Shown here: positions 3,001 through 56,465 of the stretch, piece after piece
Layout of the letters: the number at the start of each line of letters is the position of its first letter
How positions within the stretch are numbered: position 1 is the first letter of the stretch
Source: an uncultured delta proteobacterium
GTDB lineage: Bacteria > Desulfobacterota > Desulfobacteria > Desulfobacterales > JAFDCJ01
Length of the DNA stretch: 64,000 nt
Reading direction: 5' to 3'
NCBI GenBank assembly: GCA_963769935.1
Contig: CAVYNY010000033.1
Location: 1 to 64,000 of the forward strand
Made by a program: the position numbers and the translations under genes
Notes under the pieces: model-generated
What the model saw: the letters and a program-made list of their open reading frames with translations, nothing else
Told to the model about the DNA's origin: nothing
The model's database searches: none

Positions 3001-6000
3001 TTTTGACAACCTGATTACGTTCACTAATCGCAGCATAGATGTTACCTTGATTATCTACATGAATACCATTGTATAGTATTCCTCCCACCCCACATGTGCC
3101 TATCACATCGCTCTGAATTCCCTCAGGGGTTATCTTTTTTACGCAGCCACCATCACCGCTGACCAGAGATAGGTATCCGCTGTAATAAAGATTACCCTCC
3201 GTATCCGTGGCTAAATAACCGCCGTACATGTTCCTTGTGTAGAAGAGGTCTGCAAATTCGGTTACGGTTCCGCTGGGAGCCACCTTAAGAATGTAAGACC
3301 GCCAATATTGAAAACTTACCAGGTGGGAGCTGTAGATATACAGGTTTCCTTGAGAATCCATGGCCAACGCGCTTGGGGTCGGTATTTGCGCCTGAGTTGC
3401 AGGGCCCCCCATTCCTCCATAGTATGAGGAGTTACTGCCATTACCGGCATAGGTATCAATAACGGCGACATTATTTCTCGTAATGGTACCGTCTCCTTTG
3501 AAAAGAACGGAGGTATCCGTGGGACTGAGCCAATGATGAGAAGAAATCGACCAGCCCTCGGCCAGGGTCCCTTCACCCCGGGTAACGCTTACTTCTGAAT
3601 CTTGCCAGAGAACTACCGGCTGCCGGGCCGGAATCGTCAGCATGGCGGTTCCGGTTAACCCAAAGGCACGAGCCACATTGGGAGGAACCGTATAAAATCC
3701 GTTATAAACAAAACCGATTCGTATATGGCCTATCACCGTACCGGCTACGGGATTGCCCCAGTTATCCAGTCCATCCCATTCAATTTCTGCAATTTGGTTT
3801 GCTTCGGCCGGCAATTCAACCTCATAATTTTTCCCTGCGACATTGAGTTGGACGATTATTTTTACGAGGGTCTCAGGTACCGTATCCCCGCTGGCAGGTA
3901 TGGTGAAGACGCCGGGTTTATACCCCGCCACGCGATTGCTGGCATAATGAAGGGTCATCTCCGTCCCGGGAATATTAATGTCCTCGTGAAAAATACGACC
4001 GCGCTGCTCGATAAAAGACCCAAACTGACGTTTATCGCAAGGGCTGTCTCCGGCGGCCTGTCCGCCGCTTCCTGAACCCGTGCTCGCGGAGGAAGACTGG
4101 TCAGCAATGGCATTTCCTTTGGGATTCGGAGGACTCGATGGTTGCTCGGCTCTTGCTGAATAATTCCAGTCGCTCGGGGTAAAATGGGTAGTTGCAGCTC
4201 TCCAGAAAGTTGCTCCGGGTGCATATCGCTGGCTGTCGCTCAGCCCCTGCACTTCGTCGCTGTAGGACTGATCCCCGTTAAGGTCATCGGGCTGGCCGTT
4301 TCCATCGGCATCCAGAGCATCCACCGTTCCATCGGCGTCGGTATCTAAAAGCTGCACTACCAGGCCGTTGTCATCCGGTACCCAGACGCCTTTATCGCGG
4401 TCGTAGTATCCCACCGGTACAATCAAACCCACCGGCAACTCCAGAAAATTATCCACCCAGGCAATCACAGGTTTTTCAAACCGCACCCGCTCGGCCCCAT
4501 CCACACGAAGCTCCGTACAAAAGGTAAACGCTGATGTCGGCGGCAGCTTGGCCGGCATGGATTCCGGGGTGGTGTATTCGGTTGCCCTGATGGTGATAGT
4601 GTTTAATTGTTGGACATCGTTGCCGTTTTCATCGACCAGATAAGCCTGGTTGTCACCGGTAAGGACCATGGTAACCGCACGGGCTCCTGATGCATCGGCT
4701 ACTTCCGTGCTCTTGGCCGTGATCACGGTATCCGGGTTGCCGTCAAAAGTCATGGTGGTAGAAACCGGATCCTGGGCGATCATGACGACAGTGTCGACCA
4801 CAGCGGAGTCGTTCCATGGGACATACACCTTTCGATGGATGGGAATGAGTCCTTCCTTTTGGAAATTAACTGTCAGGCTTCCGCCGCCTTCGACGGGTAT
4901 GGAGTATTTTCCTTGCTCGTCTGTAACCACGGTACCATATTCCGGATGGCTGTGGATTGTAATTGATACCTCAGCAAGCGCAGCCCCAGCCGAATCACGC
5001 ACTTTGCCGGTAATTAACGCAAACCGTTTGGGGTCGTACTGGTCTACCGTAGCGTCCTGAGGCACCAGGTCTTCGTAGTTTTCACCGAATGATCCTTCCG
5101 GCTGAGGCTCCACAATGCCAAGAACGGATATTGTTACAGTTTTGCCGGTCGATCCCCCCGGGCCTGTAACCGTGAGGGTATAGGTGGTAGTGTGCACCGG
5201 GGTGACAGTAATCGAATCGTTCAAGGCCACACTGCCGATCCCGTTGTCAATGTGAGCACTTTGGCCGCCCGTGGTTGTCCAGGATAAATCCGTTGCCTGT
5301 CCTTCGTTAATGGTTGTTGATCCGGCATTGAAGTATACAACCGGTGGTGAGACAGGTCCGAGGGAGATGACCAGATCCACCGCAGAACCCTCTATCACAG
5401 ACGAACCTCCAGTTGGACTTTGGCTGATTACATGGTCGGAAAGTACGACGTCGCTGTCTGCAGTGCTGATATTGCCGACTGCCAGATCAGTCTCCAGAAT
5501 GGCAGATTGGGCCAAACTCAGATCCAGATTGACAACATCCGGAACCTTTACCTGACGTGGCAATGCGGTTATTTTTACCATATCAGGTTTGCTGTCCAGA
5601 CTGCCGTCATTAACAATCAGTTCAATCTCATAGACTCCGCTAGGATCTGCAATAAAAGTCGGCGCCGCTTGTGAAGGATCCGACAGCACGGCTGTGCTCC
5701 CCTCGGGGGCCGACTTCAAGGACCACTGAAAGCTCAGGGTATCGTTGTCCACATCGCCGGACCCACTGCCATTCAAGACAACTCGATCCAGTCGGGAAAC
5801 GGTCTGATCCGATCCGGCATCGGCGATGGGCGCATCGTTGACGGCAATGATGAAAAGGCTGATCGTTGCCGGGCTGCTGGTTAAAAGACCGTCGCCGGCG
5901 GTGAAGGAAAACGTGTCGGGACCGTGGTAATTTTGCTCCGGGGTGTAAATGAGATCCGGAGCACTGCCGCTGAGAGTCCCGTGAGAAGGTCCTGCATTGA

Positions 6001-7547
6001 TCTGATAAATCAATGGATCATTGTCCACATCCTGGGCGGTCAAGACTATGGAAATGGGTTCATCTTCAGCCAGCTCCCGGCTCTGAGGCCCGGCGACGGG
6101 TGCATCATTGATTGAAGCGATGGTAATCGTCACCAATCCGGTGTCAAAGCCGCCGTTTCCATCGCTGACCGTATAGCTGAAGCTGTCATGGCCATGATAG
6201 TTTAAAAACGGTATGTAGGTAAGCATACCTTCGCCGTTGTGCTCCACTATTCCCATCGATGCCTGTGTAAAATCGGAGATAGATAATACATCCCCATCGA
6301 CATCATCGTCGTTTGCCAGCACGTTGATTTCTGCTGAGCTATCTTCGCCGATAACGGCCGAGTCTGCCGTGGCCGTCGGCGCATCATTCATTGGAGCTAC
6401 GACGAAGGTGACGATCGCAGGCTGCGAGTCCCATGTTCCGTCATTGACCCGGAACTCCAGGGCGTCGATGCCGTTGTAATTGGGTGCCGGGGTGTAGGTC
6501 ACATCGGGAGGATCGCCGTCGAGGATGCCATGAGCGGGTTGTAATGTAACTTGATAAACTAAGGTATCCCCATCCACATCAGCGGCGCCCAGCACAACGG
6601 ATAGGGATGCATCCTCGTTCAGATTCACCGTTTGCGCTTCGGCGATCGGCGCATCATTCACCGGGAGTTACCGTGATGGCAACCAGGGCCGGCTCGGAGT
6701 CAGCTTTTCCGTCATTGGCTATAAATTCGAAAGAATCGGTCTGGTCGAAGTTTTCATTAGGGGTGTAGGTGAGATGCGGAGCCTCTCCGGCAAGCGTGCC
6801 GTATAATGGCTGGGAGTAGACTTCAAAGCTCAGCAGATCGTTATCGGCGTCTGAACCTGATAGAACAATGGAAGTCGCCGTATCTTCAGAGGTGGTCAGC
6901 TCCTGGGGGACCGCCACCGGAGCACTGTTTTCAATGGCAATGGCAACGGTGGCGGTGACGGTTTGCCCGTCATTGCCGGCTGTAAGGGTGTAGGTGGTGG
7001 GAGTCATCGGGTCTACGGTTGTTGAACCAACAGGGTCCACACTTCCGATGTCCGGTGTAATCTCACAGGTTTCCGCATTTTGGGTCTGCCAAGTCAGCGT
7101 GCTGGATTGGCCGATTTTAATCAGCGGCGGTGTGGCGGTAAAGGATATGATTTCCGGTGCAAGGCTGCCCTTGTGTTTGATCGCCAGGGTGATCGAAGCC
7201 CCGGGGGTGCCTCTTGCAAAAACCAATATGTGATTGGTCGATTTCAGGTGGACATCTTTTTCAAACGTCAGCTCATCTCCGATTAAAAAGCGCCGCAGAC
7301 TGATAAGGTCCTGATTGAAAAAAATGAAGCCGCCTCTGATTTCCTGCTGCGGGGTATTTTTCGAAATTTCAATAACCCCGTCACCGCCGCTTTCCAGAGC
7401 AAAGGTGTGCCGGCTCAGATGAGTGTGCCACCGGCTGATGGTAAAATCCTGCGGGCCAAAAACTGTTGCCCCGTAACCGTCGGCAACCAGGGAAAAAAGG
7501 GCAATAACTAAAATGAAGGTGAATACGGCAGTGTGTTTTCCCGGCAT
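1..7547 (-). CDS. Giant secreted teneurin-like YD/RHS-repeat protein (signal peptide, tandem Ig/cadherin-like repeats, PKD, PASTA, carboxypeptidase-regulatory-like domain, NHL propeller, YD shell, RHS core); split by frameshifts, 3' end outside window
   Basis: ORFs 6654-7571 and 2087-6661 join by removing one C at ~6662 (ITVTPVNDAP). A further shift at ~2150 continues PDGLMTLEIEPEGNRF... to the window edge, where YYLTYDQVGSLRVVADSSGNVVKK and, after one more indel, YDAFGN..PFG form an RHS core. Repeated NDAP.A..Q motifs, VKVPDVV (PASTA) and NHL repeats (GNLYIAD). ATG 7547 follows GGAGGAGG. Confidence 0.85.
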
Positions 7548-8048
7548 GACGATTCCTCCTCCTCCAAGCACTTGGTTTCATTGATCAATAGCAGCAATTC
7601 GCCTTCACGGACAGCACACCAATCGCTGACGACAATCACCGACCGGATATTGCCTCAGCGGGCATATTAGCATGCAAAAATTTCAGGTCAACACAAAATT
7701 TGACTGTTTTTACAATAGTTTACATTATTTTACAGCATTTGACATTTAGCGGGTAAATTCGGAATTTGTCTTGGAAAAATCAAGTCGGATGTTATTCAGC
7801 AGCGGCGTGAAGGACTGGGATGCGGAAAATGTTCGCTTGATTCGCACCGAAAAAGCAATATTTTATCTTTTAAATAGTATGGCGCCGGCATCGATTTCGT
7901 ATGTCTGGGCGACGGAATAGATCGCGGCGCAAGGCCGCGGCCTGCGAAAAAATGCGGCCACGGCGATTTCCCATAACACCATCCGCGAACCGGTCGATCA
8001 CGATCGGCGGAGCGCGCAATCCTTATCAAACTGTGATTGGAGGAACAA

Positions 8049-8729
8049 ATGCCGATATCCATTCAATATATTACTTCACGGACTGTGTGCCTTGGCTTTG
8101 TCGTTCTCGCCCTGGCCTTTTCATCTGCCGCTGCCGGTGCAGACAACCCGCTGGTCGGACAGTGGGAGCCTGCGGCGAGTCAGCCGAACCAAGACGTCGC
8201 CCGCAATGTCGCACAACTCGGTCGAATGGAAATAACGACCACCCACTTGGCGGTCTTTGGAGAATCTCCCGTGGAATACGGGTATGAGCAGGACGGCCAG
8301 ATATTTCATATCAAAGTGAATGAGCCGAATGCCCAACCGATCGATTTAGTTCTGCGCGACCCAAACACCCTGTTGATGCGTTTGCCGAACAAGGTGGATA
8401 TCCTGTGGCAGCGCGCAGCGGCTGCCGCCGCGCAGGAACCGGCGGCCGAATCGCCTGCGAAGAACGAGTCAATCGGGTCGTCGGTGGCGCAAATGGGGTT
8501 CGAGATGATGGCGGGGATGATGCCGCATTCCGTGCCCACGCGCTACGAGGCGCTTAATGAGAGTCTGGAAGCGCTGCTCAATAACGGCTGGGCAATCACC
8601 CAAGCCTCCGGCGCCGGCAATGCCATGGCGCTGGTGCTGCGGCACGAAAAGCAGCATGTGGTCTGTTTTCTCATCGGGAATCCTCAGGACAGCCAGACCG
8701 GCAGGAGCGACTGTCGCCGAATAAACTGA
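8049..8729 (+). CDS. Hypothetical exported protein
   Basis: GGAGG RBS before ATG 8049; hydrophobic signal peptide ending AAAGA; two domains separated by an Ala/Glu/Pro linker. Confidence 0.65.
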   Translation: MPISIQYITSRTVCLGFVVLALAFSSAAAGADNPLVGQWEPAASQPNQDVARNVAQLGRMEITTTHLAVFGESPVEYGYEQDGQIFHIKVNEPNAQPIDLVLRDPNTLLMRLPNKVDILWQRAAAAAAQEPAAESPAKNESIGSSVAQMGFEMMAGMMPHSVPTRYEALNESLEALLNNGWAITQASGAGNAMALVLRHEKQHVVCFLIGNPQDSQTGRSDCRRIN

Positions 8730-8792
8730 CCCGGCGGCTATGCTCCGAATAAGGGAGTATAAGAACTGAAATGCACCAATTTGACCAACATT

Positions 8793-9578
8793 TTATTTCC
8801 GGCTGGTCCGGCTTAGGATTTGTTCGATAGCGCGCGATTCTACCCAGCCCCTTTTGCTGGGCGAAATCCGAATCAGTGACCAGCCGTCTTCAGTTCTCTC
8901 CCGATGGACCGTGGTGCCCTCGTGGAGTTTAAAGAGTACGGTGTCTTTAGCTTCCGGACCGGCCAGCACGTCGACGACCGGCGTCAGGATCACGGCACGC
9001 TGATCGGCTTTGAGCTGGTGCCATTTCACCCCCAGTGATGATCCGACCACCAGCCAGAAAATCAGCAGAACGATAAAGACATAGTAGGTCCACTCCGGCC
9101 GGTGGAAAATTCGCAGCACCAGAATACCCCAGAAAATAACATTCAGCAGCGCGAACGCCCACAGCAGCTCACGCAGCGTCATTGCATCCAGCCAGAAAAA
9201 AGCCTGATTGAGAAAATTCTGTGATGGAGAAACGGCATCCTGGGTTTGGTCGAGGGCGAAGCGCAGGTTAAAATTCAGATCGGCATCCCGTGGTATCAGC
9301 ACCTGCGCTCTTTTGTAGTTTAAGATTGCCTGTCCAAGCCGGCCCGAGCGCAAGTAGGCATTCGCAAGATTATAGTACAGATGTCCGTTGGCGAAGCCGT
9401 TTGCTATCAGCTGCTGATAGCTGTCGATGGCATTCTGATAACGGCCGTCTTTATAGGCCCGATTGGCTTCGAAAAAAAGCTCTTCAGCGGAGGGCGTTTC
9501 GGCAGCGAAACAACTTCCATTAAAAAAAAGAGTTGGAAGTATTAATATCGCTAAAATCAGAAAAACAGTAGTTCTCAT
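8793..9578 (-). CDS. batE: BatE-like TPR + TM + SH3 protein
   Basis: Signal peptide, TPR (ANRAYKDGRYQNA..LYYNLANAY), TM helices, SH3-like C-terminus (LFKLHEGTTV..GWV); last gene of the bat-type operon. Confidence 0.8.
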   Translation of the reverse strand: MRTTVFLILAILILPTLFFNGSCFAAETPSAEELFFEANRAYKDGRYQNAIDSYQQLIANGFANGHLYYNLANAYLRSGRLGQAILNYKRAQVLIPRDADLNFNLRFALDQTQDAVSPSQNFLNQAFFWLDAMTLRELLWAFALLNVIFWGILVLRIFHRPEWTYYVFIVLLIFWLVVGSSLGVKWHQLKADQRAVILTPVVDVLAGPEAKDTVLFKLHEGTTVHRERTEDGWSLIRISPSKRGWVESRAIEQILSRTSRK

Positions 9579-9669
9579 AATTTTGTTCGATATGCCCGGG
9601 ATTGTGTCGTAATCAGTGACGTCTTCTCATTCATCCGGTATCCGGTCTCTCGTAAGTTATATAGCTTCT

Positions 9670-11437
9670 TCACCGGCTCTCCTTTTCTATTTTTTTTACC
9701 AGCTGCACAAGATCTTCTTTAATAGAAACGACCTCATTTCCTTTGCCGCTGTATACGGCATTTTCGCAGCGCTGCAGACAGTCCTGCAACTTTTCCGCCG
9801 TGTCGGCGCCGACCCCGCCGGCCGTTAAAATCATGACGGCCTCCGCCGGTGTCAGCGAGCCGTAGGATAAACCGAAACGGTTGTTTAAATAATCTCTGAC
9901 TAATTCAAGCAGTTCGCCGGCGGCAAGACGGCCCCGGCCGTATTGCCGGTAGAATCGGCGGGCCGCCTTTTTGGCATTGATATCCGCCTGCCCGGCAGCG
10001 TTCGGCCGGCGCAGTTTAAACCCGCAAAGTGTCCCCAAGTAGATGATAAAGGGCAGGGCGAACATGGTCGTCAATAGCCAGCCCTCCAGTCGACGCCGTT
10101 TGGTTGACCTGAAATCCTGCATGACCGCATGGATGGGAAAAATATCACGCCCCAGCTCCTTGACGGCATGCTTGCCGGCACCCTCACCGGTGGTTGCGGC
10201 AGCGTCTGCTGCGGCAACCTCAATTTTTTCTTCTTTGCCGCGCAGGACGGCCAGGGTGTATCCGGATGATTTTAAAGTCTTATAGGCCTGCTTTTGGGTA
10301 TCAAAATAGCTGACGACGACCGGCGGGACTTCCAGACGGCCTTCTACTTCGGGTACCAGCGCCCACTTCATGGTTTTGGTGCCCCGCAATCCTTCAGAAT
10401 CCTGGGTCGATTCCAGAACCGGTTGGTCGGCATAGACTTTAATGTGATCCAATTCGGGGATTTTCAGATCCGGGATCCGGTTGACATTGCCCTGCCCGCT
10501 CACCGAAACGGTTAAGGTGGCCGACTCTCCTGTTTTTAAGCTGACCGGATCCAGTTTGGACCACATTTTAAAGCTTCCCACCAGGCCGCTGAAGTCCGGC
10601 GGTTTACCTGCTTCGGGCAGGGGGCGTACATCCAGCTGCAGCGCTGAACCGGCAACCGTCAGCGGCCGACCGGTTGTGAATGAGGAAAAGGGATCCTCAA
10701 AAAACGGGTTGCCCGAAAAACCGCGGCCGGATCGGCTGTGCGGTTCCAAAACGGTCATGCTCATCCTGGCCGGTTCGACCGCATAGGCACCCGGTTTGGA
10801 CGGCACAACGGCGTAGCGGACTTCCAGCACGTTGTATTCCCTGCCGCTTGCGGCTGCTGCGGTATTCCGCCGGTTTGGCGAGCTGCTTGAAAGAAAGGTT
10901 CTCGTTCTCGGGCATGTCCAGCCTGATGTCTCTCACGTTTTTGCGCAGATACAGCTTTAAGGTGTAAATGGCCTGCTCTTCCACATATATGGATGGTGTT
11001 GAAAGCTCGGCTTCCAGGAAGATGGGGCTGCCATCGTCGCCTTGATCCCCTGCGGGCCGGACAACCTGCAAGGTTGAGCGATTGCTGGTGTAGGTTTTAC
11101 CCCCTATCTGTACGCTGGCCGGACCGATTGTATAATTTCCGACTTTCTGCGGTTGAATAAAATAGGTGTATTCGGTCCCGGAACTCATTCGGCCGTTGAT
11201 GAATTCTATTCGACTGGAAGTCCCGCCCGGGCTGACGGCAAAATTTTCCAACCCTTGAATAACGGGTTCTGATTCTCTGTCGCGGCTGCCGGCCACACTG
11301 ACAACCAGCTGCACCGAATCCGTCAACCCGGCCTGCGGTCGATCCAATTTTAAACTCACCGAAATCTCGGCGTAGGCAAAACACGGTATTGTTAGAACAG
11401 AAAAAAGAAATATCAAGCAGAGGAAAATTTTTCTCAT
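9670..11437 (-). CDS. batD: BatD family protein (one frameshift near 10840)
   Basis: ORFs 10697-11437 and 9670-10830 overlap in different frames; BatD-type motifs (SSRIEFING, FSGLVGSF, SGQGN), C-terminal TM; operon position. Confidence 0.8.
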
Positions 11438-11599
11438 AGCTATTTTTATCTCCTCTGATTATTTTGCGAATTTTTATTTGAATCCATCAGAAAATTTCAA
11501 AAATTTTTATTAAATTTTTTTTGTCTAAAGTTAAACACCGTCAAATACAACCTACTTCGTTTTCACCCGGCAGCAGCGAAAGGGAAATCAAAAAAAAAA

Positions 11600-13502
11600 T
11601 TACCAGTCCTTGCCGGAAGCAACCCCCTGTCGCTGCTTCTTGGGAGGTTTGCAGCTGCATCAGGAGCGAGCGATCTTCCTGGATATTGTCCAGCAGCGCT
11701 TCAGCCTTTTTCTTTTCCATGGCGGACAGCGCCGTTGGCGATGTTTGTTCGTCCCCCTTTTCCGGTTGCAGGCCCTCGCGCGGTTTGAGTTCGCCGGCCA
11801 GCTCCTTCCGGTCTGCCGGCCCGGATTGCTGCTTGGCCCGGGATTGGTTGTTCCGGGTATCTTCAGCCGTCTTATTTTCTGCGCTTTTTGTCTCGGCCGA
11901 GTCGCTTGCCTTCTGCCGGTCGGAAGCCGGTTTGTTTTCAGCAGATTTATTCTCAGGCTGCGGGCTCTGATCTTTCTGTTTTTTATCGCCGGCCGATTTT
12001 TCCTGCGGCTGTCCGGTGTCCGATTGCTGTTGGTCGCCGGATTGCTTTTGGTCTCCCGATTGCCCCTTTTGCCGAGCCTTTTGTTTTTCCAGCTCCCGCA
12101 GGCCAAGCTCCAGATTATAGCGTGCGTCCTGGCTGGAAGAATCCAGCGCCAGCGCCTGTTTGTAGTTTCGGACGGCGGTTTGATAATCACCCTGTTGGTA
12201 GGCCGCGTTGCCCAGATTATAGGCCGCTTTGAAGCGGATCGCATTGTCTGTCGTGCGCCGCAACACACTGGCAAAGGCGGACGCCGCGGCCTGATAGTCA
12301 CCGTTTTGATAGGCAGCGCAGCCCCGATTGTAGCGATAGCGCAGGTCCTTGGGATGGTCCATGTCCGACTGCGCATAGGCCTTTTCGGCTTCGGTGAACC
12401 GCCCTTTGCGGTACAGCTCATCGGGCGGCTCCGCGGCAAACGTCCGTGCGGCAGCCGTCAGGCAGAGCGCCACAGCTGCCAGCATCAATAAGCCGGTGCC
12501 GGCCCTTGATCGAATTTTTTCATCGATAAATCCCTCTATCAGCAGGAACATGAATGCTGCCAGTACGAAGAAGGTAAAGCGTTCTTCATACACTTTGATC
12601 TTACCGCTTTTAAGCTCCCGGGCCCGGGTATGGGATTTGATGCCGTCAAAATAGAGGATATCCAGGTCCAGGTCACCGGCGACCGAACGCACGTAGGTCC
12701 CGCCGGTCAAAGAAGCGATCTGCTGTAATCCCTGCTCATTCAGCTTGGACAATATCAACTTGCCGGCGCTGTCTTTCTTAAAGCCGCCCTGCCCGCCGAT
12801 TTCAGGAACCGGCCCGCCGCCGGCATCGCCGATTCCAAAAACATAAATTTTGACGCCCTTGGCCGCCGCTTGACGGGCAGCTTCGAGACCGCGGTTTTCG
12901 TTATCCTCCCCGTCGGTGATCAGCAAAATGACTTTATCGGTGGCCTCTTTTTCATCAAAAGCGGACAGGCCCATTTCGATGGCCGCCCCCAGATCCGTGC
13001 CCGGCACCGGAATCAGATCGGGCTGAATCGCATTTAAAAACATTTCCAAAGCGGCGTAATCAAGGGTCAGCGGACACTGGATAAACGCCGCACCGGCAAA
13101 GGCCACCAGACCCACCCGGTCTCCCTGGACAATTTTTAAAAAATCCAGGATCTCGCGCCGGGCTCTCTCCAGCCGATTCGGGGCAATGTCTGCGACCAGC
13201 ATGCTGGGCGATACATCCACTAGAGCCATGATATCCACGCCCTTTTGGCTGACCTCTTCGTAATGGCTGCCCCACCGGGGACCGGCCAGTGCAAACAGCA
13301 GCAGGCCCAGCGCCATGAGCAGCAGCAAGGCTTTAAAAAATTTCCGCCCGCGGCTTTCGCCGGCCGTAAGCCGCACCAGCAGGTGGGCGTCGGCAAACCT
13401 CTCCAGCGCCCTTTTCTTTTTGCGGCTGGCAAAAATCAATGCCACGGCCGCCAGGGGCAGCAGCCAGAGCAGGTTCAGCATCCAGAGATGGGACAATATC
13501 AT
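11600..13502 (-). CDS. batB: BatB-BatC fusion: vWA domain + TPR + Gln/Lys-rich tail
   Basis: ALAGPRWG, MIDAS DVSPSM, LITDGED, then TPRs (AAYNLGNAAYQQGDY) and a Q/K/S-rich linker. The alternative frame ends SGKDW* at 11600, the usual BatC-type end, implying a late frameshift. Confidence 0.8.
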
Positions 13503-14494
13503 GGTACGGTTCTCAAAACGGTTGTTTTCAATAAGATTTCCAGTCCGAGCAGGATCAGGGCCGGTATCAGAAAATACGGATAGAGCTCACGGAAATGGAA
13601 AAAGTCTTTGACTTTGACCTCGGTTTTTTCTGCATGATCGATGATATCGTAGATTTCCTCAAGGCCCGCGGTATCCGTAGCCCGGAAGTATTTGCCGCCG
13701 CCGATGGCGGCGATCTTTTTTAACGTGGCTTCATCCAGATCCACCTGGCGATGAACAATCTGCGTTCCGAACAGCGATTGAACCTGAAAAGGCGCCGGCC
13801 CCCGGCCGCCGACGCCGATGGTGTATATTTTGACTCCCAGGGCCCGCACCGCTTCGGCCGCCTGTTCGGGTGTCAAGTCTCCGGCATTGTGCCGGCCGTC
13901 GGTCAGCAGGATCAAAATTTTGGACGGCGCCTTTAAATCCTTCAAGCGCTTGCCGCCGATCGCCAGCGCAGAGCCGATGGCGGTGCGGTCGCCGGCCATG
14001 CCGATGGTCATCTTTTCCACCAGACCCAGCAGCAGACCCTTGTCCAATGTCAGCGGCGCCTGGGTAAAGGCTTCTTCACCGAATACCACCAGGCCGATCC
14101 GGTCGACTTCTCTTTTTTTTATGAATTCGCTGACGACTTTTTTAACCGCTGTCAGCCGGGACACCGGCTTGCCATTCAGTTTAAAATCAAGGGCCTGCAT
14201 CGAACCGGAGGTATCCAGGCACATGATAATGTCCACCCCGGGGGATCGGATTTCATGCGCAACATTGTAAAGCTGCGGCCGCGCAGCCGTTAGGATCAAC
14301 AAAATGAGACAGCCTGCCCGCACCGCCGGCAGGATGTACTGCCGCCTGCCGCTGCTCCTGCCGGCCAGCTCGGCCAGTCGGGCGGTTATGGAATGGGTGA
14401 TGCCGGCCGGTTTTTTCCAGAACGTATAAAGCACCCAGCCGACCACCCCGGTCAGCAGGACAAAAAATACCGGGTAGGCGAAGCGGAACATCAT
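13499..14494 (-). CDS. batA: BatA family vWA protein
   Basis: AARPQ, MIDAS DTSGSM, TAIGSAL, LLTDG, IYTIGVG, C-terminal TM. Confidence 0.88.
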   Translation of the reverse strand: MMFRFAYPVFFVLLTGVVGWVLYTFWKKPAGITHSITARLAELAGRSSGRRQYILPAVRAGCLILLILTAARPQLYNVAHEIRSPGVDIIMCLDTSGSMQALDFKLNGKPVSRLTAVKKVVSEFIKKREVDRIGLVVFGEEAFTQAPLTLDKGLLLGLVEKMTIGMAGDRTAIGSALAIGGKRLKDLKAPSKILILLTDGRHNAGDLTPEQAAEAVRALGVKIYTIGVGGRGPAPFQVQSLFGTQIVHRQVDLDEATLKKIAAIGGGKYFRATDTAGLEEIYDIIDHAEKTEVKVKDFFHFRELYPYFLIPALILLGLEILLKTTVLRTVP

Positions 14495-15453
14495 GGCTGC
14501 ACCTCCGGGCGGCGCCCGTCGGCCGGCACGCTTTCCAACGCCGGACCGGTTTCCCGGATGTAGGCCAGCGCGGCTTGGATATCTTCTTCTTTGCGGGTGG
14601 GGGTCGGCACGGCGTCCGCAAACTTCACCAGGTCGGCCCGCTGCAGGAGGGGCAAAAGTTGGCGGTCCTGCTCCGATCGAATGTGCTGCGCAATTTCTTC
14701 GGTCGTGTACTCAGCCGCCGGAAAATGGCGAATCGATTCCAGGTAGCGCCTTAAAATCTCGGAAAAAACAAAATAATACTTTTTTACCATGCCTTTTTCA
14801 AAATATCCTTGGGTTTCCAGCTGCTCGATGGCGCGGCGGGCCCACTCCTGGGGCGCCTCCCCGGCCGCCGGTGCAATTGCCGCCGACCGTCTTTTTTTGT
14901 ACCACCGGAACAGGCCGAGTCCGATCAGAGCAACGGCCGCCAGTATCGCCGCCCACAACAGAAAGCTGCGCCACATTGACTTGGCGGCCATAATATCTGA
15001 GATGGGGCGCAGCCGGGCCGCTTCCGGTTTTGGGCCGAGATTGGATTCGACCTGCAGTGCGACCGGATCGGCCGTCAGAACCTGGGGGCGGTCTTCTGAA
15101 TCCAGATATTCCAAGCGAATGGGCTCCGATCGCCACGGACCCACCTGATCCACCAGCAACTGGATCCGGATCTGCCGGGGGTTTATGATCTGCTTTAAAA
15201 CGGTCAGACCATCCAGCCCTTTGACGGCCGGTTTTTCCGGCAGACGGCCGCCCTCCGGCAGACGGTAGTCCAGGGCGAGCCAGACAACCCCGCCGACCGG
15301 AACCGATGCCTGATCCAAGCTGGCGGCCAGGGAACCGCCTTTTTTAATCGTTTCGGATGCTCCCGACATTCCATAACTGATGAGCAGAAACAGCAATATC
15401 AAAGTCGGAATGCAATTTAATTTAAGCTTTTTATTTTTCGTATGAAAATTCAT
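14491..15453 (-). CDS. bat-operon membrane protein (exported Ig-like domain, TM helix, helical C-terminus)
   Basis: Signal peptide, TM, then YYFVFSEILRRYLE..TTEEI..ADLVKFA, typical of the gene between DUF58 and batA. Confidence 0.7.
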   Translation of the reverse strand: MNFHTKNKKLKLNCIPTLILLFLLISYGMSGASETIKKGGSLAASLDQASVPVGGVVWLALDYRLPEGGRLPEKPAVKGLDGLTVLKQIINPRQIRIQLLVDQVGPWRSEPIRLEYLDSEDRPQVLTADPVALQVESNLGPKPEAARLRPISDIMAAKSMWRSFLLWAAILAAVALIGLGLFRWYKKRRSAAIAPAAGEAPQEWARRAIEQLETQGYFEKGMVKKYYFVFSEILRRYLESIRHFPAAEYTTEEIAQHIRSEQDRQLLPLLQRADLVKFADAVPTPTRKEEDIQAALAYIRETGPALESVPADGRRPEVQP

Positions 15454-15489
15454 CTGATCGATGGTTGTTTTTAAGTTGAAGTTCGCACC

Positions 15490-15566
15490 TTGTGGGAGTG
15501 GTTTCCAACCACGATTTTAGATGGCGGCCCATCCGAGTTCATCGCGGTTGGAAACCGCTCCCACAA
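15490..15566. repeat. REP/REPIN-like inverted pair (GTGGGAG type)
   Basis: TTGTGGGAGTGGTTTCCAACCACGAT ... ATCGCGGTTGGAAACCGCTCCCACAA, a near-perfect inverted repeat in an intergenic position. Confidence 0.75.
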
Positions 15567-15639
15567 TATCTTTAAATGATGTTTAGGTACCTTTTTACTA
15601 TTCGCTATGAGCTGCGAGCTTTATTTCCGACTACCGATT

Positions 15640-16515
15640 TCATTTCTTTTTCCTCCGGCGATCGAAAAGTCGCGTCAAAGGCTCAACCACGGAACCGTTG
15701 GTATAGATGGGCACCAAATCCACCCCGGCCTTGCGCAGGAGCACGCTCAATTCAGCCGTGTGCTGCCCGTGATAATCCGACCATTTTTGCCTCAGTGTTT
15801 TGCGGCGCGTGTTAAACGTGACGAGTCGCCCGGTCTCCGGGTCCTGCAGGGTCATCAATCCCAGATCGGGCAGATCGTCTTCGGCCGGGTCACAAATGCG
15901 AATCACGGTAAGGTCGTGTTTTCGGGCGGTCAGATTCAAGGAGCGGTCAAAATCCGTATCCATGCAGTCTGAGATTAAAAAGACGATCGCATGCCGCTTG
16001 ACGATTCGATTGAGGTAATTGAGCGCCCCGTCGATATTGGTGGTCAACTTTTGGGGCTCATAGGTAAAGATTTCTTTGATCAGCCGCCAGACATGGGAGG
16101 CACCCTTGCGGGGCGGGATGTATTTTTCGACCTGGGAGCTGAATAAGATGGCACCCACTTTATCATTGGTGCGGATGGCCAAAAATGCCAGCATCCCGGC
16201 AATTTCAGCCAGAAGTTCTCTTTTGAATTTGCTTTTGGTGCCGAATAGATGCGAGCCGGACAAATCCAGCAAAAGCATCACGGTAAGCTCCCTTTCCTCG
16301 TGAAAAACCTTCACAAAAGGATGCCCGAAGCGCGCCGAAACGTTCCAGTCGATGCTGCGGATATCATCGCCGGGTTGGTATTCGCGCACTTCAGCAAATT
16401 CCATCCCCCGGCCTTTGAAGGCACTTTCATACTGGCCGGCAAACAGGTCGCTGGCCAGGTATCGAGTCCTGAAATGAAATCCCTGAATTTTTTTATACAG
16501 TTCCTCGGAAAGCAT
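15640..16515 (-). CDS. DUF58 domain protein
   Basis: GMEFAEVREYQPGDDIRSIDWNVSAR, LLDLSGS, FLISD. Confidence 0.9.
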   Translation of the reverse strand: MLSEELYKKIQGFHFRTRYLASDLFAGQYESAFKGRGMEFAEVREYQPGDDIRSIDWNVSARFGHPFVKVFHEERELTVMLLLDLSGSHLFGTKSKFKRELLAEIAGMLAFLAIRTNDKVGAILFSSQVEKYIPPRKGASHVWRLIKEIFTYEPQKLTTNIDGALNYLNRIVKRHAIVFLISDCMDTDFDRSLNLTARKHDLTVIRICDPAEDDLPDLGLMTLQDPETGRLVTFNTRRKTLRQKWSDYHGQHTAELSVLLRKAGVDLVPIYTNGSVVEPLTRLFDRRRKKK

Positions 16516-40228: not shown

Positions 40229-42175
40229 TTATTTCTTGCCACAGGTTTCACGGTAAGGTTCGCTGCCCAGGTATTCACGCCATTCGTCCCGGGTAAGATT
40301 CCGGTTCAGCTGCGAGCAGGCTTTGGCAACCGGGTCCGCAGGCCAAATCTCCGTAACCTCGACCAGACGTCTGTCCCAGCCGTCGTCGCCGCAGGTCGCA
40401 ATAAACCGGCTGTCGGGGCTGACCGCCACGGCTGTGAGGTACCTCAGATAGGGCAGGCGCTTGATCTCACGGCCGCCCTCGAATTGCCATACCCGGGCGG
40501 TCTCGTCCGCGTCGATTGTGACCAGGTATTTGCCGTTCGGGCTCAATGCCAGAGCCAGTACGAAACTCCCGTCCGAGTTAGCAAACAATTCGGTTTTTTT
40601 CCGGACATCCCACCAGCTCAGTTTGCCTTCTGTATCGCCGATAACCAGCACCTGTCCGTTCGGGGCAAATACAGCACCCGCGTCTCCCTCGCTGGAATTC
40701 GGCAATTGCCATAATCTTGCGCCGGTTTTAAGGTCCCAAACCGTGGTGACGGTGTCGCCACCGAATGTGACCAGTTCGGTTTCATGCGGGTCGAAGCGCA
40801 TCCCCTCGACGATACCGTCGTGGCGCAGGCGGGCCACCTGCCGTCCCGTGGCCAGTTCCCATACACGCACACTCTTGTCCAGACTGGCGCTGGCCACAAA
40901 TTTGCCGGACGCCGAAACAGCGACCGTGTACGCGGCATCATCCTGGGGCAGCCGCCTGACCTCAAGGCCGGACTGTGAATCCCAGACGTGCACCGTCCCC
41001 AGCTCGGTGGTTGAAACCAGGAGGCCGCCGGTGGGCGCAAAGCGAACCGCATTAACGGGTGCGGCATGTTCCAGGCGGTGCAATTCGCGGCCGGTTGTTG
41101 GTTCCCACAGACGCACGGTGTTGTCCGGTCCGGCGGTTGCCAGAATCGGTTGATTCGGGCTGAAGTCGAGCACCTGTCTCCCTCGGAAGTTGACGTGATT
41201 TCCGCGCTTGTCCTTCCAGTGCGTGCGGCCGCCTATTCCGCCGTGGGAAATCCGCGCCGTAATTTCGCCCGTTGTCAGATCCCAAACAAAAGTCCCGTCT
41301 TTTCCGCCTCCGGCCGCCAGCAGGCGGCCGTCATAACTGAACGCCAGATCGCTCACGATGTTTTCAAAATCGATTGGGAAATTCTTGTCCGACCAGGGCA
41401 GCAAGGCCAGACCGTCTCGCAGGGAACGCTCCGCATGCGGCGTCGGGCTCCGCTTCATCGCCTCTGCGGCCAGGAGCACGCTGAGCTCGAGCCGCTCCAA
41501 TCGTTTGCTGTCCTGCAATAAAAGCGCCCACCATACTTTGGATTTTTGGTCTTCATCCGTCGCGAGCACCTGTTGCCGCAGCTCATCCGCACGGGACGCG
41601 AGTCGTTCCACCAGCTGTTCGGTCGCCTGCTTTTGACTGTAAGCCCGATAGCCATACCAGACCAGTACCGCCGTCAACATTACGAGGGCCGCTGCCAACC
41701 CTCTGCGCAGCAAACGCCGCCGGTGATGACCGCGGCGCCGCGCCTCCCTTTCCTGCAACTCCTTCGAGCTGGCTGCCACTCCCTGGGAATGGACCCGCTG
41801 GATATCTTCCATGAGCTTTAAAAACAGCGGCGAGGTTGCGGCGCCGTTCCAGTCGGAAAAGTCCACGGTCTCCGTCTGCCGGAAGGGCAGGGGCGGCTCG
41901 CATTCTTGAACCTGCAACGGCACCAGGATGCCCCGCTGCCAACCCTCAGTCGCCTCCGCGCAAACCCAGTCGGAATCCACCGAGCGCGGCGACCATACGA
42001 CCAGAACGCAGCGGCTGTGGGTCACGGCATCCTGGATCTCACGCGGAAAACGCTCCCCGCTGCGCAGCCGCTGGTCCCACCAGACCGACCAGCCGCGAGC
42101 GGCCGTGAAGGCCTCCGCCAGCCGCTTGACTTGGGGCTTGTCTTCCCGGGCATAACTGATGAATACGTCATACAT
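40229..42175 (-). CDS. TIR domain - TM helix - WD40 propeller protein
   Basis: YDVFISYARED..WWD..VVWS..SVDSDWVCAEA (TIR), Arg-rich patch then a TM helix, WD40 repeats (SASLDKSVRVWE), C-terminal AC....RNLT..EW..Y...PY..TC. Confidence 0.88.
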   Translation of the reverse strand: MYDVFISYAREDKPQVKRLAEAFTAARGWSVWWDQRLRSGERFPREIQDAVTHSRCVLVVWSPRSVDSDWVCAEATEGWQRGILVPLQVQECEPPLPFRQTETVDFSDWNGAATSPLFLKLMEDIQRVHSQGVAASSKELQEREARRRGHHRRRLLRRGLAAALVMLTAVLVWYGYRAYSQKQATEQLVERLASRADELRQQVLATDEDQKSKVWWALLLQDSKRLERLELSVLLAAEAMKRSPTPHAERSLRDGLALLPWSDKNFPIDFENIVSDLAFSYDGRLLAAGGGKDGTFVWDLTTGEITARISHGGIGGRTHWKDKRGNHVNFRGRQVLDFSPNQPILATAGPDNTVRLWEPTTGRELHRLEHAAPVNAVRFAPTGGLLVSTTELGTVHVWDSQSGLEVRRLPQDDAAYTVAVSASGKFVASASLDKSVRVWELATGRQVARLRHDGIVEGMRFDPHETELVTFGGDTVTTVWDLKTGARLWQLPNSSEGDAGAVFAPNGQVLVIGDTEGKLSWWDVRKKTELFANSDGSFVLALALSPNGKYLVTIDADETARVWQFEGGREIKRLPYLRYLTAVAVSPDSRFIATCGDDGWDRRLVEVTEIWPADPVAKACSQLNRNLTRDEWREYLGSEPYRETCGKK

Positions 42176-42287
42176 ACTCGGTAAGTAAAAAATCCTAACC
42201 TGGAGCACCAGGTTTTGAATGTTGGAATAAAAGCACTCTCTTTGGGAGGAGGTTCCCCCCGGCTCCCAAACGGGCGAAGCCCGCCGC

Positions 42288-46229: not shown

Positions 46230-47711
46230 TTATTCCGCGGCCTCAGACTCGGGAAACTTCAGCTCCATCCACAGGGGCAGGTGGTCGGACAGTTGCTCGG
46301 TGCGCCAACGCTTGAAAGTTTCCGCCTGCCGTTTGCCGTCGCCCGGGACGGCGTGGGCATAGGCCTCGGTGTCGGGCTCGCGCAGCACGTGTTCGAAGGG
46401 CAGAAACGATCCGGAGCGACCGATGGTGACTGCCCCGGACGCATTGACCAGCAATCCGATCAGGTCGTAGAAGCCGTCCGGACGAAAAGCGCTGGTGGGG
46501 TGGATATGTTCAGGCGGTGCGGCGAAACCCTCGCGGCGGAAGGCCTGCACGGCGGGAGAGTCGGCGCTGCGAATGTTGAAGTTGCCGGCCAGTATGATGT
46601 TTTCCCCATCGCGCCCGGCAACGCGCTTCAAAAAGCGCGCCAGGGTCTCGCACTCGCGGATCCCGGGCTTGGGATCTCCGCTGCCGAAGTGGATATGCGC
46701 GGCACACATCCTGAAACGAAAATCGCCGGCGCGGAAGCCTGCGAGCAGCGGCTTGCGTGCGAACTGCCGCCCGTCGATCAACAGGTTGTCCGGCAGCACG
46801 ACCTCGCCGCTGATGTGCTCAAAGGACACCCGCGGCTGGTAGTACAGGATCGCAAAGCGTTCGTTGCTGCCCAGGGTGCCTTCGGTGATGTCGGTGATGA
46901 AGTAGCCCCACTCCGGTCCCATGATCTCCAGCAGGGCACGCAGGGACGCGAGGTGCCGGTCGATCTTTTGCAGGGAGATCACGTCGAAGGCCGACAGGAT
47001 CTGCGCCATGTAGAACAGAGCCTCACCCCAGGGAGCACGCCGACCGAACTTGTTCAGGCACCAGTTGGCTACCAGCAGGTTGTCCTTGAGGCGCCGGGGA
47101 ATATCGTTTACAAGCGCCGGGCGCAGGCGTGCCAAGCCGGACAGGGTGCGGGCACGTTCGGGCGGATCGAGGCTTACCAGCTCAGCGTCGGTGAAATAGT
47201 GGGGCGCCGGGTCGAAGGCACCGCCGCATTCCAGCAGAAGGCCCAGGGCCGCCCGCCGGATGCCGGCCACCACGTCGTCCATAGCGCGCAGCGGGTCGTC
47301 CCAGTCGGTGATCGGCCTGGCTTTGTAAGGCAGGCTCTCGAACCGCGCCAGGGGCAGATCCTCGAACTCCGGGACCTCCTCCACGAGCACCGGTACGGGC
47401 ACCGAGACTCGCATTTCGTGCAGCTCCAGGGCCAGGCGCATCTCCACTTCGGCGATGTAGCGCGACGCAAGAAAGGCCTTGCTGACGAGCAGCACGACGA
47501 TGTCCGCGCCGCGCAGGTTTTCATCGATCACATCCGACCACTCGGTACCGGGAACGATGGCCCCGTCGTACCATGTGATCACCAGCCCTTCTCTTTCCAG
47601 GATGTCCAGGTGACGGTCCAACGCCTGGCGGGTATCTGCATTTTCGTGGGCGTAGCAGAAAAACAACTTCAGCGGTCGGCGCTTGACAGGGCGCTCCGGA
47701 GGCGAATTCAT
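46230..47711 (-). CDS. TIR domain fused to an endonuclease/exonuclease/phosphatase (EEP, DNase I-like) domain
   Basis: TIR: LFFCYAHEN..WYD..PGTEW..ADIVVLLVS..FLAS.Y..EVEM. EEP: LLVANW, FDVISLQK, ERFAILY, HIHFG, IILAGNFNI, YD, SDHLPLW. Confidence 0.82.
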   Translation of the reverse strand: MNSPPERPVKRRPLKLFFCYAHENADTRQALDRHLDILEREGLVITWYDGAIVPGTEWSDVIDENLRGADIVVLLVSKAFLASRYIAEVEMRLALELHEMRVSVPVPVLVEEVPEFEDLPLARFESLPYKARPITDWDDPLRAMDDVVAGIRRAALGLLLECGGAFDPAPHYFTDAELVSLDPPERARTLSGLARLRPALVNDIPRRLKDNLLVANWCLNKFGRRAPWGEALFYMAQILSAFDVISLQKIDRHLASLRALLEIMGPEWGYFITDITEGTLGSNERFAILYYQPRVSFEHISGEVVLPDNLLIDGRQFARKPLLAGFRAGDFRFRMCAAHIHFGSGDPKPGIRECETLARFLKRVAGRDGENIILAGNFNIRSADSPAVQAFRREGFAAPPEHIHPTSAFRPDGFYDLIGLLVNASGAVTIGRSGSFLPFEHVLREPDTEAYAHAVPGDGKRQAETFKRWRTEQLSDHLPLWMELKFPESEAAE

Positions 47712-48003
47712 GGCCGTTCTCCTTGGCAAAAGGATAGTGTGTTGCAAAGGTTCAGGGTCCCAAATCTTTATCCGTGATCTAATATTTGGAAGCAGTCATT
47801 CGTCAAATATCATTGACATCATAAAATCTCAAATGATAATCGATAGTCTTGATTGATCCAATCGGATGCCAGGGGGGCAACTTTTAATTACGCCGGCCTG
47901 AAAAATAGCAACACCAGGTTTTGATAAGGATTGTCGTCCAATTGTGCCTGATGAGAATGCTTTATGTTGCTCAGGCGTGCGGTGAAATAAGAGAGGCGTT
48001 CTT

Positions 48004-54717: not shown

Positions 54718-54759
54718 TTGACAAAATTATTGTTTGTTGTACAATTGTCACATTGTCAA
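54718..54759 (+). promoter_or_regulatory. Promoter/operator of the toxin-antitoxin pair
   Basis: TTGACA-16 nt-TACAAT overlapped by the palindrome TTGTACAA and tandem ATTGTCA repeats. Confidence 0.55.
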
Positions 54760-54775
54760 ATTCGGGAGGCAAAAC

Positions 54776-55168
54776 ATGGATATTGTAATTGACACATCTG
54801 CATTAATTTCGGTGATTGTCGGTGAGCCTGAACGTAAAAGGATCATCGAAGTTACAACAGGGAACACACTTATTGGACCTGGCTCTATTCCCTGGGAAAT
54901 TGGTAACGCCTTCTCAGCGATGTTCAAACAAAAAAGGTTGACCCTTGAGGAAGCTAAAAAGGGGTTTTCAATTTTTAAAAGCATCCCCCTCCGCTATATC
55001 GATCCAGATTTTGCTAATTCCTTAAAATTGTCTAAACAGGCTAATATTTATGCATACGATGCTTATTTTTTAGATTGTGCTATCAGACATAAGGCACCTT
55101 TATTGACGTTGGATCGAAAGTTGAAGGACTCTGCTCAAATTCTCAAAGTTGAAACTATGGAGGTTTAA
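54776..55168 (+). CDS. vapC: PIN-domain toxin (VapC family)
   Basis: IVIDTSAL, WEIGNA, YAYDAYFL, LLTLD. Confidence 0.9.
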   Translation: MDIVIDTSALISVIVGEPERKRIIEVTTGNTLIGPGSIPWEIGNAFSAMFKQKRLTLEEAKKGFSIFKSIPLRYIDPDFANSLKLSKQANIYAYDAYFLDCAIRHKAPLLTLDRKLKDSAQILKVETMEV

Positions 55169-55456: not shown

Positions 55457-55634
55457 CCATACTATTTATAAATTTCGTAAGGGATAAAATCTTTCGGCTA
55501 ATCGTTGACAAACCCTTAATTGAAACCTTCCCAGCTGATTTAAGATGGGTAGATTCATAAAAACTCACTGCTGCTCGCAGCCTGGAAGGGTTCAACTTTG
55601 GGGAGATCCGAATTTTTTAAAGGAATTAGTCGAC

Positions 55635-56465
55635 TTGAAAAAGCAAAAATCCTCCATCAAGAACGACAAAGTTCACAGCCCGCACCTGGTCGAGCGAAAT
55701 GTCACGTCCTGGGAAGACTTTGTCCGGCTCGTTTCCGTTAAGCCCCTCAGAGATTGGGCTTTTCGCGGACAAAGCGAGGCCGGATGGCAGCTGTGGCCCA
55801 AGATCAGCCGCGAGCTCCGCAACCGGCGGGTAGCGCCCCGATACTGGAAGGAACAGGAGCACAGACTCATCTGGATTTTCCAGCGCAAGGCGATTCACTT
55901 TCTGGACAAAGTTCCCGATGTCGGAGACACACCGCAGTGGATGGCACTCATGCAGCACCATGGTGCTCCGACACGCCTGCTGGACTTTACCTGGTCCCCC
56001 TATGTAGCCGCTTTTTTTGCTCTCGAATCCAGCGTTTCAGACGCTGCCGTCTGGGCCATCAACGCCCCGCAGATCGGCACATTCGCTTACGGGCCTCACT
56101 TCAAGATCGCCCAGCGGCCGCCAAGTCCGGAACAGGCACTCAGCGAAGTTGGAATTAAGGAATTGGATGCCGTCGCCATCGGAGAACCCTATTTCAAAAA
56201 CCGGCGTGTTATTGCCCAATCCGGAACCTTCGCCTTCCCCTTTGACATTAAACGGCCCATCGACGCGATACTTTCAAGATCCGAAGGCGTCATAGAAAAG
56301 TTAGTGCTTCGCGGACCGGGACTCCGCAAAAAGGGTCTCGGCGAACTTTATCGGATGAATATCACCTACGCCACACTCTTTCCTGATCTGGACGGCCTCG
56401 CCCGTTCGCTTGCTTTCGAACTGGAGCACCATTATGCTTTCGATCCTACAGAGAAGGAGACCTAG
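55635..56465 (+). CDS. FRG domain protein
   Basis: WAFRGQS, MQHHGAPTRLLDFT..VAAFFA, NRRVIAQSG.F, LFPDLDG; probable TTG start after AAGGA. Confidence 0.88.
   Translation: MKKQKSSIKNDKVHSPHLVERNVTSWEDFVRLVSVKPLRDWAFRGQSEAGWQLWPKISRELRNRRVAPRYWKEQEHRLIWIFQRKAIHFLDKVPDVGDTPQWMALMQHHGAPTRLLDFTWSPYVAAFFALESSVSDAAVWAINAPQIGTFAYGPHFKIAQRPPSPEQALSEVGIKELDAVAIGEPYFKNRRVIAQSGTFAFPFDIKRPIDAILSRSEGVIEKLVLRGPGLRKKGLGELYRMNITYATLFPDLDGLARSLAFELEHHYAFDPTEKET

Follow-up and report, generated by a model that had tools for sequence, protein, structure and literature searches.

The window analysed here, a stretch of 64,000 nucleotides from an uncultured delta proteobacterium, carries on its minus strand a gene (P0001, 46230..47711) that joins a TIR domain to a DNase I-like (EEP) domain predicted to be inactive. 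The gene is intact: it is a single open frame of 493 aa that ends in a TAA stop codon. An alternative start at an upstream TTG (47747) would give 505 aa. An initial protein search returned 47 matches, mostly full-length TIR-EEP fusions of 38-93% identity. A promoter scan upstream of the gene, on its own strand, found no sigma-70-like promoter. Related genes are partly covered by metatranscriptome contigs (three runs, one study), which show neither strand nor level and may hold DNA. In contigs of two metatranscriptome runs, again from one study, 1285 bases of the gene (46410-47694) are skipped at a 7-base microhomology; this skip is likely, though on weak grounds, a deletion allele in related strains, its short side being only 30 letters at a likeness cut-off of 85%. 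An antisense ORF of 498 aa (46281-47777, plus strand) overlaps the gene and most likely arises as a shadow of its high-GC codon usage.

Residues 13-155 (47247..47675, minus strand) form the TIR domain. Pfam TIR_2 matches residues 17-124 at 9.5e-13 (49 bits against a cut-off of 28), and profile matches include Cat1, which is the best solved structure (6.8e-9), TIR-STING (6.3e-5) and the TIRs of TLRs. Conservation agrees with this assignment: W47, D49, G55, W58, S83, E90, A94, W137 and D139 are invariant in 36/36 relatives, and C/S19 and Y20 are also kept. In the profile alignment, E90, S83 and D49 are aligned with E74, S68 and D33 of Cat1. According to the available text on Cat1, D33, S68 and E74 line the NADase site between stacked TIRs, and alanine mutants are non-toxic (PMC12162218). 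An earlier, sequence-only reading of this DNA had located the catalytic glutamate within the motif YIAEVEM (residues 85-91). The glutamate is indeed kept, and we can now assign it to the second Glu of the motif, E90 (codon GAG, 47442..47444, minus strand), which is aligned with the Glu of both Cat1 and TIR-STING; E88 is variable (27/36 relatives). At the level of sequence the TIR motifs are intact, and the domain is predicted to cleave NAD+. A structure prediction of the TIR alone was of low confidence (pLDDT 60). A transmembrane helix is not evident in the protein.

The TIR is followed by a family-specific linker and helix, residues 163-210 (47082..47225, minus strand), recognized by conservation of the pattern GG[PA]F[ED]xxxHxFx[ED]AEL...R186 and lying in part in a predicted dimer interface. 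The EEP domain then extends over residues 211-485 (46257..47081, minus strand). The EEP of the window protein escapes detection by Pfam, and its identity comes from its fold: in an AlphaFold model of the 493-aa protein (pLDDT 84) its best structural match is DNase I (Foldseek 1.2e-14; Z 24.1, rmsd 2.5 Å over 233 residues).

Catalytic residues of the EEP domain

Alignment to human DNase I places Cys218 (47058..47060, minus strand; motif ANWCL, 215-219) at the position of Asn7, Lys249 (46965..46967, minus strand; SLQKI, 246-250) at the position of Glu39, the Glu of VQEV, and Asn377 (46581..46583, minus strand; LAGNFNI, 374-380) at the position of Asp168, the Asp of GDFN. Ser475-Asp476-His477 (46281..46289, minus strand; LSDHLP, 474-479) preserves a pocket motif. 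The window protein keeps five of the eight residues of the canonical N-E-H-D-N-D-D-H set and falls short of an active EEP. Every motif quoted in the sequence-only reading was found again, namely the changes WN to WC, QE to QK and GDFN to GNFN, the retained SDH and the intact frame.

Beyond the fusions, a profile search across 1.84 billion representatives recovered a large family of sister EEPs that stand alone; these are 30-40% identical to the fused EEP, N-terminal helix included, and sit mostly among housekeeping genes. We regard this stand-alone bacterial family (PF03372) as the direct source of the fused domain. The host genome has a stand-alone paralogue of its own (L002, 1432-2865, minus strand) with canonical motifs and a ~120-aa insertion mid-domain, and one genome, G401, carries both fused and stand-alone forms. 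A further protein, P0137, lacks a TIR; its EEP is degenerate and preceded by an N-terminal hydrophobic helix, and the protein is a long-branch sister of the fused clade.

We counted the catalytic residues in domains that cover most of the profile (60/69 fused, 149/186 others); removal of near-duplicates left 48 fused EEPs and 136 others, the latter including a few fusions other than the soluble TIR type. All eight residues are kept in 0/48 fused EEPs vs 125/136 sister EEPs. Five are kept in 20/48 fused domains, six in 21/48 and seven in 1/48 (L097), where only the Asn7-equivalent is missing. This Asn is absent from 48/48 fused EEPs and present in 134/136 others, the two exceptions being truncated members of the fused clade, and position 218 uses several different codons. 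The other changes are lineage-specific: Asp168 is replaced by Asn in 24/48 (Asp in 21/48), Asn170 by Gln in 20/48 and Glu39 by Lys in 5/48 (Glu in 37/48), with the Asp168- and Asn170-equivalents both retained in only 3/48. The Ser, Asp and His of the pocket motif are kept in 48/48, 45/48 and 46/48. Recurrence of the same substitutions in homologues, which the sequence-only reading had asked about, thus holds throughout for the loss of Asn but not for the Glu-to-Lys and Asp-to-Asn changes, and 20/48 altered the neighbouring Asn to Gln instead.

The fused proteins form one clade on EEP-only trees (support 0.98; 97*), and these trees show a single origin of the soluble TIR-EEP fusion. For two unsaturated pairs, dN/dS in TIR and EEP was 0.195 and 0.201 (window protein vs L088) and 0.167 and 0.163 (L086 vs L101); over 92 pairs, mostly saturated, the medians were 0.31 and 0.35. 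Both domains are under purifying selection, a point that the sequence-only reading had proposed to check. From the family-wide residue loss, the single clade and the dN/dS values, we conclude that the EEP of the fused family is an old, maintained pseudo-enzyme and predict that it is inactive. The domain had been described as apparently dead from one gene, and that description can now be extended to the family.

It could be argued that the substitutions are sequencing errors or the recent decay of a fusion that was once active. A frameshifted copy is present at L098, and the likely deletion allele described above would fit decay as well. However, relatives as distant as ~40% identity share these substitutions, position 218 is reached through several codons, and dN/dS is ~0.2. 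Homologues that keep N, E and D, which had been named as a sign of error or decay, were not seen among the 48. We therefore reject this explanation for the family, and consider it hardly credible for the gene itself.

We take the residues of APE1 to map onto those of DNase I. In the available text of one study of APE1, activity falls ~100-fold in N68A, ~20-fold in E96A, 10,000-fold on loss of D210 and 7,000-fold on loss of N212 (10.64898/2026.05.11.724140). In that of another, the E96Q/D210N enzyme is dead and retains substrate binding (PMC9474862).

The same EEP family occurs in other fusions. A second TIR-EEP architecture, TIR-TM-EEP (~560 aa, 18 proteins: P0167, P0156, P0177 and P0197-P0211), has another type of TIR and a hydrophobic helix near residue 188. 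It keeps the TIR Glu in 18/18 and the full EEP set in 15/18. These proteins arose independently, with a receptor-like layout in which the EEP and the TIR would lie on opposite sides of the membrane. Nested within their clade is P0178, in which an EEP with a degenerate site is joined to a caspase (Peptidase_C14) domain, and P0190 (877 aa) joins an EEP to a reverse transcriptase. Thus, the EEP family has repeatedly been joined to immune-type enzymes. As TIR-TM-EEP mostly keeps its active site, fusion to a TIR does not by itself force inactivation of the EEP; inactivation is specific to the soluble TIR-EEP family.

This comparison bears on the possibility that the EEP still has phosphoesterase activity, be it slow or altered, for instance to erase a nucleotide signal or to act as the effector, with the TIR regulating it. 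TIR-TM-EEP demonstrates that the pairing of a TIR with an active EEP does exist, L097 lacks a single residue of the set, and most fused members keep the Glu. Against this are the three simultaneous changes in the window protein and the rarity with which Asp168 and Asn170 are retained together, each of them worth ~10^4-fold in APE1. We consider residual activity quite improbable.

The retained pocket and the predicted dimer

Inner and pocket residues of the EEP (Q248, E284, R285, R319, H339, S475, D476 and H477) are each kept in 45-48 of 48 fused domains. Constraint has been relaxed at outer positions that the active family conserves, among them Arg at 227, 350 and 220, Gln417 and Tyr415. The conservation of Arg drops from 0.99 in the sisters to 0.10 in the fused EEPs at position 227, and from 0.96 to 0.42 at position 350. 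The fused family has also gained invariant residues of its own, which lie in the linker (G163, G164, F173, A176, E177, R186, L193, L196 and R206 in 36 relatives) and at N211, P266, Y291, R294 and P405. Nor is the fused EEP any more basic by net charge, with a median of -0.72 per 100 aa against -0.26 in the sisters, and a basic DNA-binding surface is thus unsupported by net charge. From the retained inner pocket, the loss of outer arginines and the lack of any gain in basic charge, we infer that a small phosphorylated ligand or a nucleic-acid or strand end fits the pocket better than duplex DNA. The proposal that the EEP binds nucleic acid or a nucleotide therefore needs to be narrowed: polymeric nucleic acid is not favoured, whereas a small ligand or an end may be. 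In P0026 and P0028, all eight residues are gone, including SDH and the His pair, and the TIR Glu90 is kept, so the pocket is dispensable in one lineage.

These surface data are also relevant to an integrated decoy. Here, the dead EEP would mimic the active sister nuclease of the host and bind a phage protein (a DNA mimic or inhibitor) aimed at that nuclease, whereupon the TIR fires. The host does encode a canonical sister, G401 has both forms, and the fold is conserved even in P0026 and P0028, where every pocket residue has gone. However, most members keep the inner pocket and lose the outer surface residues of the active family, which would make them poor mimics, and the sister EEPs, mostly found among housekeeping genes, bear no sign of phage targeting. 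A decoy is thus unlikely, although not far-fetched.

A two-copy model of the protein scored 0.50 vs 0.00 for the best control, with runs agreeing on at least 84% of contacts and a pLDDT of at least 82; the mark for this score was reached by 20/30 solved pairs and 1/23 single chains, counts that hold only roughly here. In the model, EEP edge strands 269-274 contact 299-305, 316 and 320, TIR residues 37-42 lie on 265-267 of the partner, and TIR residue 141 lies on the partner's linker at 179. Conservation is slightly higher at the interface than elsewhere (0.68 vs 0.61, p 0.04; polar residues only, p 0.02). The model supports a homodimer in which the edge strands of the two EEPs pair and each TIR docks on the EEP and linker of its partner. 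We infer that this dimer is the resting or off state.

Such an interface raises the question of whether the EEP is only a scaffold for dimerization and auto-inhibition, with the TIR itself recognizing a phage protein, a role that has been suggested for the TIRs of some single-gene systems. The family-specific invariants A176, R186 and P266, as well as G265, D139 and R40, do lie in the predicted interface and not in the pocket, and the available text of one report describes single-protein TIR systems that are triggered by portal or tail proteins (PMC11350192). On the other hand, R319, H339 and the S-D-H motif are kept in 45-48/48 while neighbouring metal ligands drift. A bound ligand explains this more easily, a structural role being possible, and we doubt that the EEP is a scaffold only.

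Distribution and genomic neighbourhood

The soluble fusion is rare. In our genome collection it accounts for only 2/72 loci; in the same collection, so that the two counts are not additive, the full-length fusion was found in 2/22 genomes of the same genus and 0/38 other relatives. Among genomes of the phylum it was found in 0/400. A DNA pattern specific for the linker retrieved 25 metagenome loci; family members are encoded at 24/25, in some cases the same protein again. Named members include one Desulfobacteraceae and one Planctomycetota protein. No TIR-EEP fusion was found in viral contigs or phages, and a plasmid search gave no fusion, with 0/25 matches reaching 80% coverage of the protein. 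A comparison with empty sites was uninformative, as gene order is fluid within the genus.

In the window, the neighbours of the gene are mostly metabolic and include a CGGC gene, an MFS transporter and a phosphoesterase. A TIR-WD40 gene lies 4.0 kb away (40229-42208, minus strand); its TIR, hydrophobic helix and WD40 repeats have the layout of a Toll-like receptor, and similar TIR-WD40 genes flank the fusion at loci L079 and L087. An FRG-domain gene 7.8 kb away (55545-56465, plus strand) matches PADLOC PDC-S15 at 7.7e-45, and beside it is what we take, by motif, to be a probable PIN-domain gene (54734-55168, plus strand). The host genome (G000, 8.0 Mb) has 24 TIR_2 matches, 22 of them over the cut-off and several paired. 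With so many in the genome, the TIR-WD40 neighbour is weak evidence. The window itself is not a clear defence island.

We examined the neighbours of the fusion at 19 loci. Pfam was run on 61/106 candidate ORFs and PADLOC on 29 proteins; alternative frames, ORFs further away and housekeeping-like genes (for example at L006) were passed over. Most fusion loci look like housekeeping regions without defence neighbours (for instance L006, L085, L094 and L098). Two are different. In L079 (cluster 318-11329), a TIR-WD40 gene is directly upstream of the fusion, and TPR-S, patatin and ThsB-TIR genes are downstream. In L087 (cluster 8184-15718), a TPR-S gene, two SLATT-type genes and then the fusion follow each other on one strand, together with TIR, TIR-WD40 and PLD genes. 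The two clusters jointly hold TPR-S/MAP3K_TRAF_bd, SLATT_1 and DUF4231 genes. TPR-S systems are reportedly from Burroughs and Aravind 2020. Elsewhere, a broken ThsB-like gene is just upstream of the fusion at L099, the fusion at L089 adjoins a PADLOC PDC-S08 match with a CHAT gene near, L091 has a cyclase-NB-ARC-TPR gene near, and at L007 the fusion follows an IS200-like transposase, with HipA near.

For comparison, we scanned 203 ORFs around stand-alone EEPs, at 31/41 loci with flanks of at least 3.5 kb (10 near-kin were dropped). At E<=1e-9, TIR, SLATT, TPR-S and patatin genes were found at 0/31 of these loci, a few of which had HNH, methylase or IS genes. By the same cut, defence clusters are present at 2/19 fusion loci vs 0/31 controls (p 0.14); for 2/7 longer loci, a hand selection made with the data already in view, p is 0.03. 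The enrichment of defence genes near the fusions is thus weak and no more than suggestive. Across the 19 loci there is no recurring partner gene. Cyclase and Cas genes were absent from the 61/106 neighbour ORFs scanned with Pfam and the 29 proteins scanned with PADLOC, many of the contigs being short, and no neighbour scanned matched pAgo.

The proposal of a single-gene defence sensor thus stands in part. The gene has no recurring partner. Its neighbours in the window are mostly metabolic, and the case for a defence role draws on analogy, on patchy distribution and on a minority of loci. An alternative is that the protein has nothing to do with phage and is a cytoplasmic node of a large TIR repertoire, one that links TIR-TIR signalling or programmed death to a metabolite or a product of DNA damage and has its partners encoded elsewhere. 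The TIR_2 matches of the host, the loci without defence neighbours and the occurrence of the same EEP family in receptor-like TIR-TM-EEP and caspase-EEP proteins are all consistent with this. However, the rarity of the fusion, its shifting genomic position and, more weakly, the likely deletion allele fit a gene in conflict better than a core signalling gene, and we consider this alternative unlikely.

Known systems and a proposed mechanism

The short pAgos lack catalytic residues, and TIR-STING and TIR-SAVED are typically encoded with a cyclase. Among known proteins, Cat1 (TIR-CARF, type III CRISPR; PMC12162218) resembles the fusion in its N-terminal TIR, in the equivalents of S7, D33, S68 and E74 and in having a C-terminal domain in the sensor position. 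It differs in that, by the available text, this domain is a CARF and not a DNase I-fold pseudo-enzyme; no CRISPR or cyclase gene was seen among the scanned neighbours of the fusion, and we identified no equivalents of Cat1 K121 and Y122 in it. SPARTA (TIR-APAZ with short pAgo), as far as the available text describes it, likewise uses a nucleic-acid-binding protein to gate a TIR NAD(P)ase through oligomerization (PMC9097488), but it consists of two guide-dependent proteins with an Argonaute fold, whereas the fusion is a single EEP-fold chain without a guide partner; its C-terminal domain is not APAZ. TIR-STING and TIR-SAVED also pair a TIR with a nucleotide-binding module, and their matches to the fusion are confined to the TIR (the PADLOC SAVED-TIR match is at 4.2e-5); their sensor folds are different, and no cyclase was seen by the fusion. 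Thoeris ThsB (PADLOC PDLC00420) matches the TIR at 2.2e-27, but only over model positions 4-142 of 319; the fusion has a C-terminal EEP instead, and in the window it is not in an operon with an adjacent effector gene. The available text on ARMADA type II describes in YprA a predicted inactivated EEP inside a defence protein, there appended to a helicase-nuclease without a TIR (PMC12458937). By analogy, the fusion would resemble Cat1, TIR-STING, TIR-SAVED or SPARTA in its working, and it is a member of none of them.

Searches for a named system gave the same picture. PADLOC matches only the TIR, NCBIfam returned 0 families, and the ESM Atlas returned only plain EEP clusters (0.76). We found no TIR-EEP fusion in the literature searched; Burroughs and Aravind 2020, or the figures and supplements of the Thoeris preprint, could list the architecture. 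The available text of PMC11350192 and of 10.64898/2025.12.03.692087 mentions neither EEP nor exonuclease; 'EEP' in PMC11232893 is the name of a phage and not the domain, and PMC13692257, by its available text, is unrelated. One systematic survey of TIR genes, in the text available, discarded stand-alone TIR genes (10.64898/2025.12.03.692087), and the family may have been overlooked for that reason. The view that this is not a recognized system thus agrees with PADLOC, NCBIfam and the literature searched, and the TIR-pseudo-EEP proteins are a real and apparently undescribed family.

We propose a tentative model, to which we give slightly less than an even chance, in which a single gene couples a TIR to an inactive DNase I-fold domain that serves as a ligand-binding gate in an immune response. 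The resting state would be the homodimer. During infection, a phosphorylated ligand (the likeliest being a nucleic-acid end or a small nucleotide) would accumulate and be trapped in the retained pocket (Q248, E284, R319, H339, S475, D476 and H477), where it could no longer be cleaved. Binding of the ligand may then release or stack the TIRs so that they form composite active sites, which would use up NAD+ or produce an ADP-ribose signal, leading to cell arrest.

A more specific form of this model seems to us possible but rather doubtful. It holds that a housekeeping enzyme of the DNase I family was turned, once, into a substrate-trap receptor that senses what infection leaves behind, either a nucleic-acid end or a nucleotide by-product, and directly fires the fused TIR NADase without a cyclase, a guide or a partner.

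The family offers natural material for testing these ideas: a small, soluble, single gene, a paralogue in the same genome that looks active, members that keep from seven to none of the eight residues, and a TIR-TM-EEP family whose active site is mostly intact. The sensors known to gate TIR domains are few, namely CARF, STING, SAVED, Argonaute and STAND/TPR. If our model is correct, the DNase I-fold pseudo-enzyme would join them as a new fold, and its ligand could be a new infection signal; in the more specific form of the model, bacterial immunity would probably gain a new danger signal as well.
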